Source: an uncultured bacterium
GTDB lineage: Bacteria > Patescibacteriota > Minisyncoccia > UBA6257 > 2-01-FULL-56-20
Direction: 5' to 3'
DNA length: 64,000 nucleotides
NCBI GenBank assembly: GCA_963719425.1
Contig: OY970382.1
Location: forward strand, 7,888 to 71,887
In this document: piece by piece, positions 4,821 through 39,109 of the stretch
Position numbering within the stretch: the stretch's first letter is position 1
Layout: the number at the start of each line of letters is the position of its first letter
Program-made: the position numbers and the translations under genes
Notes under the pieces: model-generated
What the model saw: the letters and a program-made list of their open reading frames with translations, nothing else
Database searches by the model: none
Told to the model about the DNA's origin: nothing

Positions 4821-5897
4821 ATGGCGGAAGATTATAAGACGAGATTGAATGAGCTTTTGACGACGTGCGCGAAGCAGAGCGCTTCCGATTTGCACCTCGC
4901 GGTCGGACGGCGGCCGACATTACGTATTGACGGCACCCTTGTGCCGCTTCAGAAGGAGCCTATTATGACGCCCGAGGTTGCGGAAGGCATCATTTCGGAG
5001 CTTACCACCACGGAGCAGAGGGAGAGACTTATTACCCAGCGGCAGCTTGACCTCGCCTATAGTTTTGAGGACAAAGCGCGGTTCCGTGTGAATGTCTATT
5101 ACCAGCGCGGCTACCTCGCGGCAGCGCTACGCCTCGTGCCCGCGCGCATCAGGACGATTGAGGAATTGAACCTCCCGCCCCTTCTCCACGATTTCAGCAA
5201 ACTGTCGCAGGGATTCGTCCTCGCCGTAGGTCCCGCAGGACACGGGAAGTCATCAACGCTCGCGGCAGTCCTTGACGAAGTGAACCACACCCGGGCCGAC
5301 CACATCATTACCATTGAGGATCCGGTTGAATATCTTTTTACGCAGGATAAATGCATCGTTTCACAGCGCGAAATAGGAAGCGATGCAGTGAGCTTTCATA
5401 GCGCCCTGCGCACCGTTCTGCGGCAGGACCCGGACGTCATCATGATCGGCGAAATGCGCGACACTGTTTCCATTTCTACCGCAATGACGGCAGCGGAAAC
5501 AGGGCACCTGGTATTTTCCACGCTGCACACGAACTCCGCGTCGCAGACGATCGATCGCATTATTGATTCTTTTCCGGCTGAGCAGCAGGGGCAGGTGACC
5601 TCCCAGCTCGCGGCGACCTTGGTCGCGATTGTTTCTGAGCGTCTCTTGCCGAGAATCTCCGGTGGCCGCATCCCATCCATGGAAATTATGATTGTGAATC
5701 CGGCCATTCGGAACCTTATCCGCGAGCGGAAAACGTATCAGGTTGATCTCGTGATTGAGACTTCGTTGCAGGAGGGCATGGTGACGCTGAACCGCTCGCT
5801 TGTGAATCTCATAAAAAACAAGGAAGTAACGCTCGAGAATGCCGAACTCTATTCATTGAATCCGGCGGAACTTCGGATTCTCCTTGAACGGACATAA
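4821..5897 (+). CDS. pilT: Twitching-motility / pilus retraction ATPase
   Basis: Walker A GPAGHGKSST; PilT-type Asp and His boxes; ~358 aa hexameric secretion ATPase architecture. Start at MAEDYK. Confidence 0.85.
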   Translation: MAEDYKTRLNELLTTCAKQSASDLHLAVGRRPTLRIDGTLVPLQKEPIMTPEVAEGIISELTTTEQRERLITQRQLDLAYSFEDKARFRVNVYYQRGYLAAALRLVPARIRTIEELNLPPLLHDFSKLSQGFVLAVGPAGHGKSSTLAAVLDEVNHTRADHIITIEDPVEYLFTQDKCIVSQREIGSDAVSFHSALRTVLRQDPDVIMIGEMRDTVSISTAMTAAETGHLVFSTLHTNSASQTIDRIIDSFPAEQQGQVTSQLAATLVAIVSERLLPRISGGRIPSMEIMIVNPAIRNLIRERKTYQVDLVIETSLQEGMVTLNRSLVNLIKNKEVTLENAELYSLNPAELRILLERT

Positions 5898-19721: not shown

Positions 19722-20864
19722 ATGACTGCCGAAATCGTTATCACATCACCGGAAGAGAAATCCCTCCAGGCGGAGATTGAGAGGAGAAGCGACGCGGAAG
19801 GGGCACGCATGCTGCGGTTCATGCGGATGCCGGACCTTTCGCGCACGAAAGGGAGCCCGATTTGCGAAATTGTGCAGCGTATCGTGGCACTCCCGGATTT
19901 CAAGACATTCGACGTTGTGCAGGTGCCGGAGATTGTGCCCGCGCGGGAGAGTTTTGATCTTTTTAATTTTCCGCCCGACCATCCCGCCCGCAGCCGCTCC
20001 GACACGTATTACGTGAACAACGACTACATTTTGCGCACGCACACCACGATCATGTGGTATTACTGGCTCGGCCTTTCCAAGGTGAAAGAGAAAATGCAGC
20101 GTGGGGAAGCAGTGGGCGCCTTGTGCTACGGCAAGGTATATCGCAAGGACGAGATAGACCGTGAGCACATGAACATATTCCACCAGATGGACGGTTGGTA
20201 TCTTTGTCGCCGAGAGGAAAAAGAGATAGGCCTGGAAGACCTGAAAGCCGTTTTGGTAAAGATCGCGCAGGCAATTTACGGGCCGGACATCAAGTATCGT
20301 TTCAATAAAGATACGTTTCCCTACACGGATCCGAGCTTGGAGATGGAAATAGAAGTGGGGGGGCGCTGGGTGGAGGTCTTGGGCAGTGGCGTCGTACAGC
20401 CGAAGGTTTTGGACAACTTCGGCGTTGATTCTCGCGTTTGGAATGGCTGGGCGTTTGGCTTCGGCCTGGAGCGGCTTGCCATCTTGAGCATGCAGCTTCC
20501 CGACATCCGGCTCTTGTGGTCGCGGGACCTGCGCGTCACGCGCCAGCTCCGCCTTGGGAATGCTTATAAAGAGGTAAGTAAATTCCCTCCCGTCAGCCGC
20601 GATATTTCGTTCGTCGTGGGCGCGGGCTTCGTGCCCAATAATTATTTTGATGTTATCCGCGACATCGGTGGCGACCTTGTGGAAGAGGTGGCATTGCTTG
20701 ATAAGTATGAAAATCCGGAAAAATTCGGCAAAGGGAAAACAAGCTATACCTTCCGCGTGGTCTATCGCGGGAACGACAGGACGCTCACAAACGCGGAGGT
20801 GGACGTGATACATCACGCGCTTGAAGGAAAGACTGCCGACGAGTTCGGCGGAACGGTACGGTAG
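19722..20864 (+). CDS. pheS: Phenylalanine--tRNA ligase alpha-type catalytic subunit fused to a C-terminal FDX-ACB anticodon-binding domain
   Basis: Class II motifs (FPYTDPSLEMEI; motif 3 GWAFGFGLERLAILSM); ~95-aa C-terminal extension KFPPVSRDISFVV...YRGNDRTLTNAEVD resembling the PheT / mitochondrial PheRS FDX-ACB domain. Confidence 0.75.
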   Translation: MTAEIVITSPEEKSLQAEIERRSDAEGARMLRFMRMPDLSRTKGSPICEIVQRIVALPDFKTFDVVQVPEIVPARESFDLFNFPPDHPARSRSDTYYVNNDYILRTHTTIMWYYWLGLSKVKEKMQRGEAVGALCYGKVYRKDEIDREHMNIFHQMDGWYLCRREEKEIGLEDLKAVLVKIAQAIYGPDIKYRFNKDTFPYTDPSLEMEIEVGGRWVEVLGSGVVQPKVLDNFGVDSRVWNGWAFGFGLERLAILSMQLPDIRLLWSRDLRVTRQLRLGNAYKEVSKFPPVSRDISFVVGAGFVPNNYFDVIRDIGGDLVEEVALLDKYENPEKFGKGKTSYTFRVVYRGNDRTLTNAEVDVIHHALEGKTADEFGGTVR

Positions 20865-22779: not shown

Positions 22780-22853
22780 CGGGCCGTCGTATAGTGGTAG
22801 TATACACGCTTCGGGTGCGTGCGGTCTGGGTTCGATTCCCAGCGGCCCGACCA
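22780..22853 (+). tRNA. tRNA-Pro (CGG)
   Basis: Acceptor CGGGCCG/CGGCCCG; anticodon arm CACGC-TTCGGGT-GCGTG (matches the E. coli proK loop TTCGGGA); T-loop TTCGATT; A73 and CCA encoded. D-arm slightly irregular. Confidence 0.6.
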
Positions 22854-23512: not shown

Positions 23513-24279
23513 ATTCGTGCAAACTTCGTAATTTCACAGAAGATTCATCAGTGATTGGTTTGTAACAACCAGTTGCTGGGAGAATCTCTCCGAATTGTAG
23601 AGTCGGGGAAGGAATAGTAGAAGCTCTGCATCATGTTTTTTGCCATCGCATTTTGGCAAATCCAATTTCTTACGATCGGCAGAGCAAAAAGTCAGCATTG
23701 GGATGGTTGGCATTTCCGTCGCAAGACGGATCTCAATAAGGGCGAATGGTGGATGCCTTGACTAGAAAAGGCGATGAAGGACGTGGCGTAGCGACGATAC
23801 GCCTCGGGGAGGTGCGTAGCAACCTGTGATCCGGGGATGTCCGAATGGGGAAACCTAATTACGTAAACCGTAATTGTTTCGGCGCAAGCCGATTCGCGTA
23901 CCTGGCGAAGTAAAACATTTCAGTAGCCAGAGGAACAGAGAACAAATCAGTTTATTCCCTTAGTATCGGCGAGAGAAAAGGGAAGGGCCCAAACTAAGGT
24001 TCTGATTTTTTCGGAATCTTGGGGTAATAAGAGAAAGACGCTGTTTTGCCGGTCGCCGAGCTTCCGTATAATCGGGACTTCGGCGATTGGTGAAATAAGG
24101 AGGAGTCAAAAAATCGTTGGTTAGCCAAAGCCGGCTGGAAAGCCGGGGCCAAAGCGGGTGATAGCCCCGTAGGCGAAAACTTACGATCTCCTTAGTTTTT
24201 CAACTTGAGTACTTCGGGGTAAATAAGTCCCGAAGGAATTTGCCTGTACTATCAGGCAAGGCTAAATACTTTTCTAGAT

Positions 24280-24316
<37 letters not shown>

Positions 24317-25100
24317 CAGGCCGGCGAGGCCGTTGAAATAGAACCTGAAACCATTTGTCTACAAGGAATTGAAGCTCCAAGTGCGGATGCAGCAATGCGT
24401 TCGCGCGGGGCGACAATGTGCCTATTGAAGAATGAGCCAACGACTTATCTTGTGTTGCTTGTCTAAACGCGCATAGCGTGCAGGCATAGCGAAAGCGAGT
24501 CTTAATAGGGCGTACATCCCACTCAATTTATTGGGTGGGATCGCAGCACAAGGTAGACCCGAAGCCAGATGAGCTTGCCTTGGCCAGGGTGAACCTCGGA
24601 GAAATCCGAGGGGAGGCCCGAACTGGTGAGTTGTTCAAAACTCTCGGATGAGCTGAGGTAAGGAGTGAAAAGCTAATCGAATTTGGTAATAGCTGGTTCT
24701 CTCCGAAATAGTTTTAGGACTAGCGGTGCGGAAAATCTTGCGGGGGTAGAGCACTGGATGATCTGTAAAGGCCGAAAGGCCGACAGATCAATCAAACTCC
24801 GAATACCGCAGGCGGATCCCGCACTAGTCAGACTGCGGGGGCTAAGCTCCGTGGTCGCGAGGGGAAGAGCCCAGACCGTTATCTAAGGTCCCCAAATCCA
24901 TGCTAAGTGTGAAAGGTAGTCATCACCCATAGACAGATAGGAGGTTGGCTTAGAGGTAGCCATCCTTTAAAGAGTGTGTAACAACTCACTATTCGACGGG
25001 TGGTGGCGCCGAAAATGTACCGGGGCTAAGCATGGTACCGAAGATACGGATTCGCTGACTTCATTGAGGAAAAATTTGTTCTTTGATTTGCGGCTTTGTG

Positions 25101-25173
25101 TGACGCGTAGCTCAGTTGGTAGAGCATCCGACTCTTAATCGGAAGGTCGCGGGTTCGAACCCCGTCGCGTCCA
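25101..25173 (+). tRNA. tRNA-Lys (CTT) embedded in the 23S IVS
   Basis: D-arm GCTCAGTTGGTAGAGC; anticodon arm TCCGA-CTCTTAA-TCGGA; T-loop TTCGAAC; acceptor has a T1:C72 mismatch; CCA not encoded. Confidence 0.6.
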
Positions 25174-25210
25174 CCCACCGTCTTTGATGGTGGAGAGAAA
25201 GCTCATGTGT

Positions 25211-25355
25211 CGGAGCGTAGCACAAGGGTAGTGCGCCTAGATGATCTTAAGTCTCCGGACCGTCAAAAGGATTTATGAATGACCTTTTGGCCCGCCGGCA
25301 GCGCGAGGTCTGTGCAACTAGGAGGTTGCAGGTTCAAGTCCTGTCGCTCCGACCA
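25211..25355 (+). tRNA. tRNA-Ile (GAT)-like gene interrupted by a ~70-nt insertion in the anticodon loop
   Basis: Acceptor CGGAGCG/CGCTCCG plus A73 and CCA; D-arm GCACAAGGGTAGTGC; anticodon stem CCTAG (25236-40) pairs with CTAGG (25318-22); loop ends ATGAT...AA would reconstitute ATGATAA; T-arm GCAGG-TTCAAGT-CCTGT. Confidence 0.4.
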
Positions 25356-26116
25356 AAAGTTTTGAGCGAGGCGTGTCGACACTATACTGTCGCGCGCCTC
25401 GCCTCCTCAATGAAGTCAGTGAGTGGTAGGAGAGCATTCGTACTGCAGTGAAGCCCGACCCGCGAGGGCGAGTGGAGCGATACGAAGAGAAAATGTTGGC
25501 ATGAGTAACCACAATCCCAATGAGAAATTGGAACCCCGAAAATCCAAGGTTTCCGTGGCACTGGCAATCAACCACGGGTTAGGCGATCCTAAGGCAATGG
25601 CGAAAGCCGCAGCTGATGGCATGCTGGTTAATATTCCAGCCCTCCTTTGTGATTATCCGTCGTGTGCGAAGGAAATAGGTGCGTATGCCTTATTGGTTTG
25701 GTATCGCTGGTCCGAAGTTCAACAAGGATCGGCGGAAGGTGAGGAATTTACCTCATCAACACGCATGAAGAGCCTTCCAAGAAAAGCGCGGCGGTTACGT
25801 TGCAGAGGATCCGTACCGTAAACCGACACAGGTGGATAGGGCGAGAAGCCCAAGGGGAACGAGTGATTTGCCTCTAAGGAACTCGGCAAAAAAGCGGCCG
25901 TACGTTTGCTATATGGCCTGATCTTCCTTAACCGGAAGATCCGCAGCGAAAGTTTCTCTGGCGACTGTTTACCAAAAACACAGCTCCCTGCTAACTCGCA
26001 AGAGGATGTATAGGGGGTGACGCCTGACCGATGCGAGAAGGTCAAGGTTGGGAGTGCCGTGCCGCAAGGTGCGGGACCCACTGACTCAAGCCCTCGTCAA
26101 TGTCAGCGATAACTAT

Positions 26117-26832
26117 AGACATAACGATTGTAGTTATAAAATCTGGCTATATGCTGGAAACTCTGTGTATCTGACATTACGGTATTTAATGAAAATTTTA
26201 TCCAAATTTAATTTTCATGTGGTACCGTGAAAATATGATCAGTGCAGACAATCAGCAGGAAAGGCTTTGTGGCATTGGTTGGTATCTTGCCGGCTTCGTT
26301 GATGGAGAGGGAAGTTTTAATACTTCTCTCCGAAAAGGAAATGGGCACCGCCTCGGATGGCAGGTGCAATTAACCTTCAATGTAGCCCAAAGGGATATCA
26401 GCAACCTGGAATTGTTAAAACAATATCTAGGATGCGGACGATTACAATATCGTAAAGATGGAGTACATTACTTCGTCGTGAGCGATTACCGTTCGATTAT
26501 TGATCGCGTAATACCGTTCTTTGAGAAATTCACGTTTTTCTCCGCTTCCAAGAAGAAGAATTTTTCTCTATTCAAGCAAATTGCATTTCTGATGGGTCAA
26601 GGAAAACATCTTGATCCGGCGGGATTGCAAGAAATTATTGCAATTAGGGAATATTTGAACGAGGGAAGAGGAAGGACGCGGAAATATAACAAAGACGATA
26701 TCACGATCGACCACAAAGAATCCTCAGAGACTATACGCCGGAGTTCATCAATGGTGATGGACAAGATATAGTCCGATCTCATGGGCGACCATGAGGATCC
26801 CGCTTAAAAACGAGCGAGTGATAACGTAAAAG
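26117..26832 (+). mobile_element. Group I intron at the 23S L1917-equivalent site, carrying a LAGLIDADG homing endonuclease gene
   Basis: 5' exon ends AACTAT(U); intron ends in G; the flanking exons AACTAT|AATCGTTCTAAGGT align to E. coli AACUAU|AACGGUCCUAAGGU. Confidence 0.6.
26235..26771 (+). CDS. LAGLIDADG homing endonuclease (single-motif, I-CreI/I-CeuI-like)
   Basis: Motif LAGFVDGEGSF; ~180 aa; lies inside the rRNA intron. Alternative start at 26217. Confidence 0.8.
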   Translation: MISADNQQERLCGIGWYLAGFVDGEGSFNTSLRKGNGHRLGWQVQLTFNVAQRDISNLELLKQYLGCGRLQYRKDGVHYFVVSDYRSIIDRVIPFFEKFTFFSASKKKNFSLFKQIAFLMGQGKHLDPAGLQEIIAIREYLNEGRGRTRKYNKDDITIDHKESSETIRRSSSMVMDKI

Positions 26833-26846
26833 AATCGTTCTAAGGT

Positions 26847-27083
26847 GGAATTGGTACTGCCTTAGTAAAACCTAACTATATGCTGGAACACCCGCGCATA
26901 TCAGAGTACCGAAAGGTGACAATCTCTGATCGAAGCGGACAATCAGCAGGAAACTTCACGGGAAGGATCCTCAGAGACTACACGTTAGGATCGCCGCAAG
27001 GCGATAAGATATAGTCCGAACTGCATAACGATATGCAGAGCCAAGCAGAAATGTTTTGGCCAACAAAAGTTGTAACACGTTCG
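26847..27083 (+). mobile_element. Short ORF-less group I intron at the L1931-equivalent site; a paralogue of the L1917 intron with the endonuclease gene deleted
   Basis: 5' exon ends TAAGGT(U); intron ends in G before AGCGCAATTCC (E. coli AGCGAAAUUCC). Shares blocks CTATATGCTGGAA, GACAATCAGCAGGAAA, ATCCTCAGAGACTAYACG and AGATATAGTCCGA with intron 1 in the same order. Confidence 0.5.
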
Positions 27084-27780
27084 AGCGCAATTCCTTTTCG
27101 GGTAAGTTCCGAAGCGCACGAAAGGCGTAACGACTGGAGAACTGTCTCGGAGGCAAGCTCGGTGAAAATGCGATTCCCGTGAAGACGCGGGATACCTGCA
27201 GCGGGACGAAAAGACCCCGGAAGCTTTACTGCAGCTTGGTATTGTCTTTAGGATCTTGATGCGTAGCGTAGTGGTGAGGATTTGAAGCCGCGCTCTCGGG
27301 TGCGGTGGATCCGACAATGAAACAGCCATCTTTAAGATTTTAAAGACTAACTGATGTGGAAGTGCGCAAGCATAAACCATATCAAGACAGTGCTTGGTAG
27401 GCAGTTTAAATGGGGCGTTTTCCTCCAAAAGAGTAACGGAGGAGTTTATTAAGGTCGGCTTAGCCCGGATGGAAATCGGGCAGGACGTGCAAACGCAAAA
27501 GCCGGCTTGACTGCGAGACCTACAAGTCGAGCAGGTGCGAAAGCAGAAGTTAGTGACCCGACGGCTATGTTCATGCGTGTTTTACTACGTGCATGAATTC
27601 TTGATAGAAAGGCCGGAGACACCGGATAAAAGCTACTCCGGGGATAACAGGCTGGTGAAGTCCGAGAGTTCCTATCGACGACTTCGCTCGGCACCTCGAT
27701 GTCGGCTCGCGACAGCGCCCGGGTGGAGAAGCTCGGAAGCGTTTGGCTGTTCGCCAATTAAAGTCGCACGTGAGCTGGGT

Positions 27781-28102
27781 GAGTGAACAACACTTCAAAT
27801 GAGCCCAGCAATCCTTTACACGAGGCTCGATTGTGTCCCAATCGAGAGAAAACAAAAAAGGAAAATAAATTGACTCATAACGGCGAAGTCCTCAGAAAGG
27901 ATAATGCCGTGGGAAGGTTGCGGTTTTTTTCCAGGCGCTCTTTTTGCGCCAAGAGAATCGTGAACCCCCGTAACGACTTGATCGTTTATGCGATCGGAGC
28001 GAAAAGATGGGAAGATCGTCTTCTCGCTAAAACGTCAGTCCTTGCGATTGGAATAGCAAGGAAAGGAATAGTCTAGTGCTCTTAGCAATAAGAGGAACAT
28101 TG
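27781..28102 (+). mobile_element. ORF-less group I intron at the L2593-equivalent (I-CreI target) site of 23S
   Basis: 5' exon ends GAGCTGGGT(U); intron ends in G; 3' exon resumes TCAGACCGTCGTGAGACAGG (E. coli UUAGAACGUCGUGAGACAG). Confidence 0.55.
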
Positions 28103-28134
<32 letters not shown>

Positions 28135-28252
28135 TGCTGCAGGCGTTTACACTTGAGGGGAGTTGGCATTAGTACGAGAGGACTTTGCTGAACCTACCTC
28201 TGGTCTACCGGCTTTGGTACCAACTGAACTGCCGGGTAGCTATGTAGGGAAG

Positions 28253-28286
<34 letters not shown>

Positions 28287-28508
28287 ACCCCAAGATTAGG
28301 TGTGTGTGATTTCGTGGAAGACTACCACGTTGATAGGCTCCAGGTGTAAGGCCCGCAAGGGTTTCAGCCGAGGAGTACTAATAATCCCGCCAACCATCCC
28401 AATGCTGACTTTGTTGTGTTCGTTTCGCCGTCAAAACTCTGAAGCGAACACTCTCTGCTAACAAAAAGGAGTGAGTGCGCTATAACTTATAGCGCGCGAA
28501 ACGACCTT

Positions 28509-32368: not shown

Positions 32369-39109
<6,741 letters not shown>

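Follow-up and report, generated by a model that had tools for sequence, protein, structure and literature searches.

A tRNA-Pro-type, most likely non-decoding module within the helix-45 intervening sequence of a patescibacterial 23S rRNA gene

The spacer tRNAs of rRNA operons and the "tRNA punctuation" of mitochondria are sense tRNAs co-transcribed with rRNA, and their release by RNase P and 3'-end removal separates the rRNA pieces. Plant mitochondrial t-elements and the mascRNA of MALAT1 are tRNA-like processing elements that RNase P cuts from longer transcripts. Here, we analysed a tRNA-like element of 145 nucleotides (nt) that lies inside the 23S rRNA gene of an uncultured bacterium (GTDB lineage Patescibacteriota; Minisyncoccia; UBA6257; 2-01-FULL-56-20). 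The DNA under study, hereafter the window, is a stretch of 64,000 nt from contig OY970382.1 (GenBank assembly GCA_963719425.1, positions 7,888 to 71,887 of the forward strand), in which the element occupies positions 25211-25355 on the plus strand. The original prediction, made from the sequence alone, had taken it for a tRNA-Ile(GAU) gene with a 70-nt insertion in the anticodon loop. According to the analysis described below, it is in all likelihood a relic or module that does not decode, and no intron-bearing tRNA.

The modules described here resemble spacer and punctuation tRNAs in their sense orientation, in their presumed co-transcription with rRNA and, as far as the analogy holds, in the separation of the flanking rRNA by RNase P and 3'-end removal. 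They differ in that spacer and punctuation tRNAs are functional decoders located between rRNA genes or organellar gene pieces, and are not known to occur within a helix of an uninterrupted bacterial 23S gene. With t-elements and mascRNA the element shares a cloverleaf-like fold, an intact acceptor/T-arm half, a non-decoding anticodon region and a position within a longer transcript; however, these RNAs come from eukaryotes or organelles and have no sequence relationship to it; the resemblance is one of design only, and RNase P cleavage of the present element is a prediction. Two kinds of tRNA intron were also compared. The bulge-helix-bulge (BHB) introns of archaeal and eukaryal tRNAs are likewise short inserts in the anticodon-loop region, but they carry a BHB at their junctions, whereas the present element has none, resides in a bacterial host and is ambiguous as to the position of insertion. 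The group I introns of patescibacterial tRNAs occur in the same phylum, also interrupt the anticodon loop and likewise sit in tRNA genes that standard annotation misses; unlike the present insert, which measures 70 nt and has no intron signature, they are 184-894 nt long, are recognised by RF00028 and undergo self-splicing in vitro.

The 23S rRNA gene of the window extends from 23728 to 28401 on the plus strand (Rfam RF02541, 2029.8 bits, model positions 1-2925), has a length of 4674 nt against a 2925-position model and is followed by a 5S rRNA gene. In the Rfam alignment, the extra sequence containing the element falls at model position 1218/1219, in the helix-45 loop, where the intervening sequences (IVSs) of bacterial 23S genes are classically found. 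There, an IVS of approximately 357 nt (25059-25415, plus strand) replaces the tip of the helix; in a BLAST comparison with L121, a relative that has no IVS, the alignment is interrupted at 25058 and 25416. It is closed by a 21-bp basal stem, the presumed RNase III site, with its 5' arm at 25050-25070 and its 3' arm at 25404-25424: the inverted repeat 25052-25070 / 25404-25422 is 95% complementary, and the centroid fold contains 21 continuous pairs. From 5' to 3', the IVS holds a spacer, a near-canonical tRNA-Lys(CUU) (25101-25175; ARAGORN; 67.9 bits with the Rfam tRNA model), an 8-bp spacer hairpin (25175-25193), the tRNA-like element and, ahead of the 3' basal arm, a terminal 15-bp hairpin (25366-25402), all on the plus strand and both hairpins as given by the centroid fold. 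The tRNA-Lys has a U1.C72 mismatch at the top of its acceptor and ends in ACCC, not ACCA. The whole region is far more structured than its shuffled counterparts (fold z = -7.0). Thus, by its position at the helix-45 tip, its long double-stranded end stem (21 bp) and its sporadic distribution among close relatives, the host structure is, on sequence grounds, a member of the helix-45 IVS class; its excision is putative.

The helix-45 IVSs described in Salmonella, Leptospira, Campylobacter and Coxiella (PMC4990558, PMC2801512) are alike in replacing the tip of helix 45, in having an inverted-repeat basal stem, in their length of a few hundred nt and in their sporadic occurrence among close relatives. 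They are excised by RNase III without religation, an outcome which, by analogy, would be expected here too. Whereas the known examples are empty or carry a small open reading frame (ORF), such as S23p in Coxiella (PMC4990558), each IVS of the present family holds one to three tRNA or tRNA-like modules, and the cargo differs between copies. We found no description of a tRNA inside a 23S IVS in the open-access papers and bioRxiv preprints searched, which is absence of evidence, and a 2024 survey of rRNA insertions in bacteria of the candidate phyla radiation (CPR), to which the present organism belongs, makes no mention of tRNA (PMC11270868). The nesting of tRNA genes or tRNA-shaped modules in a helix of a bacterial 23S gene therefore appears to be an undescribed architecture, in which the cargo is what departs from the known IVS class.

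ARAGORN missed the element in default mode and, with introns allowed, returned a call at exactly 25211-25355. The same settings produced no further new call in the window and none in 20 shuffled windows (1.28 Mb); because of this, the cloverleaf can be regarded as real and beyond chance. The acceptor stem pairs CGGAGCG (25211-25217) with CGCTCCG (25345-25351) at seven of seven positions and is followed by A73 (25352) and an encoded CCA (25353-25355). The D arm (25220-25234) consists of a 4-bp stem, GCAC/GTGC, and the loop AAGGGTA, the 5-bp anticodon stem is formed by CCTAG (25236-25240) and CTAGG (25318-25322), the variable loop is AGGTT (5 nt) and the T arm (25328-25344) reads GCAGG-TTCAAGT-CCTGT. 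The element thus has the 7-, 4-, 5- and 5-bp acceptor, D, anticodon and T stems of a canonical cloverleaf, with all 21 stem pairs standard (one of them a G.U), and direct reading of the sequence gave every core tertiary nucleotide (U8, A14, A15/U48, G18, G19, A21, G26, G46, T54, T55, C56 and A58). What it lacks is a 7-nt anticodon loop with a contiguous anticodon, the loop being 77 nt long. In a constrained fold, the cloverleaf with its extended anticodon arm had an energy of -52.5 kcal/mol, within about 1 kcal/mol of the minimum free energy (-53.5 kcal/mol). The original prediction had placed all of these arms, with A73 and CCA, where we find them and the stem halves 77 nt apart, and the outcome that it had named as a refutation, two halves unable to form a cloverleaf, did not occur in the folding. 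As a putative processing substrate, the element has its 12-bp acceptor/T minihelix intact, together with A73, CCA and a canonical T-loop.

The segment of 77 nt that separates the two halves of the anticodon stem (25241-25317, plus strand) consists of AU, an extension hairpin (25243-25310; 6+2+4+9 bp) and UGUGCAA. The insert had been expected to form a hairpin of its own, and this was borne out by folding: it is a long imperfect hairpin which extends the anticodon arm and carries a 9-bp apical stem, GUCAAAAGG/CCUUUUGGC. When a 7-nt loop was assembled from the two ends of the segment, eight splits were possible and four of them (2+5, 3+4, 4+3 and 5+2) gave a U33 and a purine at position 37, with the anticodons UGC, GGC, GAC and GAU (Ala, Ala, Val and Ile), respectively. 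The Ile-GAU loop that had been composed of ATGAT and AA is therefore arithmetically correct but not unique, being one of four valid splits. At least one loop with U33 and a purine at 37 is permitted by about 28% of shuffled inserts, and ARAGORN opted for Ala(UGC), placing the insert at 33/34.

We next turn to the acceptor end. With the 5' end CGG... and the 3' end CCGACCA, the element has a C1-G72 pair followed by A73, and this combination is the signature of bacterial tRNA-Pro. Among the 117 predicted tRNAs of all fetched loci, those with CGG...CCGA ends were tRNA-Pro in 20 of 20 cases, and the distinct tRNA-Pro sequences of these loci all start with C (14/14). With the anticodon loop excluded, four of the five tRNAs most similar to the element (among 127) were tRNA-Pro, including the IVS-borne tRNA-Pro(CGG) of the relatives L125 and L131. 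No split of the loop yields an NGG anticodon (G35, G36) in a 7-nt loop; therefore, the element would be Pro-derived and no working tRNA-Pro. In bacterial elongator tRNA-Ile, a G1-C72 acceptor end is expected. The identity tRNA-Ile(GAU) was rejected in view of the four equal loop reconstructions and the C1-G72 end, and the tRNA-Pro matches of the body, with A73, count against that first proposal as well. A G3.U70 wobble in the acceptor stem is the major determinant for alanyl-tRNA synthetase (AlaRS); tRNA-Ala was rejected because pair 3-70 of the element is G-C and G3.U70 is absent. A transfer-messenger RNA, which would have pseudoknots, a tag reading frame and an acceptor of Ala type, was likewise rejected, as ARAGORN finds none in the window and pair 3-70 is G-C. 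From the sequence, the anticodon identity of the element is indeterminable, and Ile is unlikely.

The insert cannot be recognised as an intron. When the anticodon arm was searched exhaustively for a BHB (two 3-nt bulges and a 4-bp helix), none spanned any loop-restoring pair of junctions; one weak candidate, 25243/25273, lies wholly within the 5' part of the insert and does not bridge the junctions. A BHB-type tRNA intron was therefore rejected and, with it, the archaeal-like intron that the original prediction had held possible and for which it had proposed this search. At E<=1 as well as at E<=10, Rfam gave no family for the insert and its surroundings, introns and ribozymes included, apart from the match of the T-arm to the tRNA model, and no similarity to the group I catalytic core (RF00028) was seen in the insert, lax filters included. 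On these grounds, and with 70 nt only, a group I intron, a small ribozyme and any Rfam family were all rejected for the insert; weak matches to YrlA (20 bits, E = 0.14) and Plastid-ycf2 are a reflection of the tRNA-Lys and of the two adjacent tRNAs. Patescibacteria are unusually rich in tRNA introns, and the group I introns of bacterial tRNAs span 184-894 bp (PMC13011429). The earlier judgement that an insert of 70 nt falls far short of a group I intron agrees with this range and with the lack of an Rfam intron match. The insert showed no similarity to the resident group I intron of the same 23S gene or to the rest of the window, and a repeated or mobile mini-element was rejected since neither the window nor about 200 kb of relatives' DNA contains the 77 nt a second time. 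Because the anticodon loop is missing, the RNA would be unable to decode. A decaying pseudogene, another option named at the outset, comes close to our verdict of a non-decoding relic or module, while its plain version is kept as a strong rival and is weighed below.

The above findings suggested that the element is probably a tRNA-Pro-derived, non-decoding module, the second of two tRNA units in the helix-45 IVS of the organism's single 23S rRNA gene, which is transcribed with the pre-23S rRNA and removed with the IVS. Observed directly are its location, the cloverleaf, the Pro-type acceptor, the 77-nt hairpin in place of a 7-nt loop and a common basal stem with variable cargo. In the proposed mechanism, the module would be transcribed as part of the pre-23S rRNA, and RNase III would cut the basal stem, as it does in other helix-45 IVSs, so that the 23S rRNA would end up as two fragments. 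Through their intact acceptor/T-arm half and 3' CCA, the units would be recognised by RNase P and the enzymes of 3'-end processing and excised in the manner of spacer tRNAs; the 70 nt would never be spliced out, and the RNA would be non-decoding. CPR bacteria are reported to keep RNase III (rnc) (PMC12641178), and the 2024 survey interprets short insertions other than introns, where they occupy known IVS sites in the 23S genes of CPR bacteria, as RNase III-type IVSs (PMC11270868). The released RNA of about 145 nt may have a role of its own, may aid the dismantling of the IVS or may have no role. Its top half may have been preserved by selection, either for a stable small RNA or for a signal in processing, or the element may simply be young.

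The distribution and cargo of the IVS were followed in a graded series of relatives obtained via the neighbouring CCA-adding enzyme. Synteny is kept in these loci (phenylalanyl-tRNA synthetase (PheRS), CCA-adding enzyme, 23S-5S, FtsW and YceG), and helix 45 could therefore be read in 12 distinct relatives. A plain short helix-45 hairpin with no IVS was found in L121/122, L167, L168, L170, L172, L173 and L175, and L124 has an unrelated AT-rich insert. A common basal stem (GACTTCATWGAGGA / TCCTCWATGAAGTC) closes the IVSs of the window, L139, L123, L125/126 and L131/141/152, with GACTTCATWGAGGA as the core of the 5' arm in each of them. Within this frame, the window carries tRNA-Lys(CUU) and then the Pro-type element. 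L139, whose basal stem is the window's own variant, has as its first unit a tRNA-Arg(UCG) (L139:1666-1741) with G1.A72 and A7.A66 mismatches, the contig stopping 145 nt into the IVS. L123 contains hairpins only, while L125/126 and L131/141/152 contain two aberrant tRNA-like modules, the first of Ala type, and then a canonical tRNA-Pro(CGG) with CCA. L125 is identical to L126, as are L131, L141 and L152 among themselves, and the exact IVS of the window was present in one assembly only. By these comparisons, the IVS is a derived element of sporadic distribution, with a conserved frame and exchangeable cargo.

Wider scans were also carried out. A metagenome scan with the basal-stem pattern gave 38 matches, of which 34 were chance and four were contigs that we used as added relatives. 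In a genome collection, a scan for the helix-45 sequence followed by a tRNA T-arm gave at least 119 loci, those listed being all chance or ordinary tRNA-Lys genes without 23S context, and the basal-stem pattern had a single match in a viral collection, in coding sequence outside rRNA. A scan of the viral collection with the 3' half of the element matched only a 35-nt tRNA 3'-end fragment, without the 5' half, in two IMG/VR contigs. This fragment (L165, reverse strand, 4891-4925, and L166:1743-1777) is 94% identical to the T-arm, the 3' acceptor strand and CCA, and has the look of a tRNA-Pro-type 3' end copied into a phage att site.

Comparison of the two groups of relatives with three modules illustrates how such units change. 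The IVSs of L125 and L141 are about 99% identical, save for the interior of module 1 (L125:15097-15185; L141, reverse strand, IVS positions ~58-161), where a replacement has affected the entire D and anticodon region and left the acceptor strands, T-arm and CCA untouched. The T-arm of module 1 is canonical in both, and in L141 ARAGORN assigns to it an Ala-type acceptor (G3.U70, A73 and CCA), an anticodon loop with a 9-nt insert and a long extra arm. Because AlaRS does not need the anticodon, this Ala-type minihelix might still be chargeable. The window element repeats, so far as sequence can tell, the pattern of module 1, with its top half intact and its anticodon domain remodelled. Like the canonical IVS tRNA-Pro(CGG) of L125/L141, it is the last module of its IVS, and when the 21 stem pairs of the two are compared, 14 are identical, six are changed on both sides, one has become G.U and none is broken. 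An alignment of the terminal hairpin of the window with the L125 IVS was too gappy to claim homology. All six IVS modules seen are in the sense orientation of the rRNA. A CCA is encoded by four of the five IVS modules called by ARAGORN, as against six of the 33 genomic tRNAs of these genomes (Fisher p = 0.012). As an IVS-specific mark, the encoded CCA was rejected: it is enriched, yet the genomic tRNA-Pro of the window carries CCA too.

A bolder version of the model can be put forward, which we offer as speculative and rather doubtful. In this clade of Minisyncoccia, the helix-45 IVS would be a cassette holder for tRNAs and tRNA-like minihelices that serve as punctuation: RNase P, the 3'-end enzymes and RNase III would fragment the 23S rRNA and release accessory Lys-CUU, Arg-UCG and Pro-CGG tRNAs together with non-decoding acceptor-identity RNAs, the 145-nt element being a selected stable small RNA and no relic. 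On the same tentative footing, the non-decoding RNAs would be exemplified by the Pro-type element of the window and by the Ala-type G3.U70 module of the relatives, which would in principle be chargeable by AlaRS.

Several observations weigh against a Pro-derived module removed with the IVS. The overall identity of the element to any tRNA is about 64-69% and is spread over many isotypes, and the Rfam tRNA model (RF00005) aligns to its T-arm only (12.6 bits). The comparison with the tRNA-Pro of L125 assumes a homology for which position and acceptor type are the sole grounds. The material searched contained no homologue of this very element, and so neither the element nor its 70-nt extension has covariation evidence behind it. 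The precursor is predicted to fold with A73, CCA and the sequence beyond them paired to leader and trailer, extending the acceptor helix by 9+2+6 bp, and such pairing could hinder RNase P. Finally, the closest relative (L121/122, CCA-adding enzyme 93% identical) has no IVS, and any function is therefore dispensable.

Some of these points suit plain decay, in which an IVS tRNA-Pro was inactivated by the 70-nt insertion or replacement in its anticodon loop and persists as neutral cargo of a selfish, sporadic IVS, with no role in processing. We regard this as a real possibility, if the less probable one. It would fit the absence of the IVS from the closest relative and six others, the variation of cargo between IVS copies and the slight defects of neighbouring IVS tRNAs (U1.C72 in the tRNA-Lys of the window; G1.A72 and A7.A66 in the tRNA-Arg of L139), and a genomic tRNA-Pro(CGG) upstream, at 22780-22853, makes a second Pro gene redundant. 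Simple decay is harder to reconcile with the 21 stem pairs and core tertiary nucleotides, all intact although the surrounding IVS has diverged past alignment from its relatives, with the retention of acceptor, T-arm and CCA in L125/L141 while the interior was replaced, and with the enrichment of CCA in IVS modules. The intact pairs, the kept top half and the CCA enrichment suggest a constraint on the top half; a recent origin would explain them too.

A functional tRNA (Ile-GAU, Ala-UGC, Ala-GGC or Val-GAC), from which the insert would be removed by a BHB endonuclease and ligase, by RNase III and RtcB or by a small ribozyme, seems improbable to us. Its cloverleaf is perfect and has an encoded CCA, and four splits restore a loop with U33 and a purine at 37, but the acceptor is of Pro type, where Ile would want G1-C72 and Ala G3.U70 (G3-C70 was found), no BHB spans the junctions, no ribozyme or intron family appears at E<=10, and the element resides within a dispensable IVS that the nearest relative lacks. 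The 33/34 split does fit the "after U, ends in G" rule of group I introns, and the richness of Patescibacteria in tRNA introns is in keeping with a spliced tRNA (PMC13011429). The same U...G boundary could be cited for the remnant of a group I intron of a tRNA, its catalytic core deleted, as could the frequency of such introns in patescibacterial tRNAs and the presence of one 1.4 kb downstream in the same 23S gene; yet the insert is a simple imperfect palindrome without RF00028 similarity under lax filters, and it resembles neither the resident intron nor any other part of the window, which makes this origin quite improbable. An assembly chimera, with tRNA DNA misjoined into the 23S gene, is the most improbable of all. 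Although the exact IVS of the window is known from one assembly only, the insert is bounded by a perfect extension of helix 45, and independent NCBI, JGI and ENA assemblies show this stem again, with tRNA cargo in the same location (L125 = L126; L131 = L141 = L152; L139 with the stem variant of the window).

The 23S gene of the window has other insertions. A second one of approximately 966 nt (26118-27083) contains a group I intron (RF00028, 64.5 bits, 26796-27038) and a LAGLIDADG_1 homing-endonuclease ORF (26217-26771). The third, of approximately 322 nt relative to L173 (27781-28102), matches no Rfam family at gathering thresholds; L121 has about 670 nt at this site. Smaller lineage-specific expansions in domains I/II were seen in the Rfam alignment, with about 65-85 nt after model position 312 (~24040-24105) and about 22 nt near model position 583 (~24380-24400). 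Since there is no 16S rRNA gene within the 64-kb window, the 23S-5S pair is unlinked from 16S. The genomic tRNA-Pro(CGG) at 22780-22853, with its encoded CCA, lies about 875 nt upstream of the 23S gene, and L121 has tRNA-Glu and tRNA-Gly just upstream of its own.

Further afield, the ORF at 32369-39109 (2246 aa) contains all RpoB domains followed by all RpoC domains and thus represents a fused beta-beta' RNA polymerase subunit; the same fusion is present in the relatives L168, L170 and L173. PheRS (19722-20864) is a single chain of 380 aa with a class II core (tRNA-synt_2d) and an FDX-ACB anticodon-binding domain, a monomeric architecture typical of mitochondria, and this single-chain form stands next to the CCA-adding enzyme in all relatives. 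Beside the block of these two genes, L124:2030-7068 carries genes resembling a TraG/type IV secretion system coupling protein and a relaxase, and L167:6902-8293 carries a reverse transcriptase and a bAvd-like gene, resembling a diversity-generating retroelement.

These results remove a false lead, that of a new class of bacterial tRNA intron. They also imply that tRNA annotation in CPR genomes should include the interiors of rRNA genes, and that intron-mode calls made there should not be taken as decoders. If the modules are processed as tRNAs, accessory tRNAs would be acquired, reshaped and discarded within rRNA insertions, and these CPR bacteria would break their 23S rRNA by means of the tRNA-maturation machinery, a bacterial counterpart of organellar tRNA punctuation.

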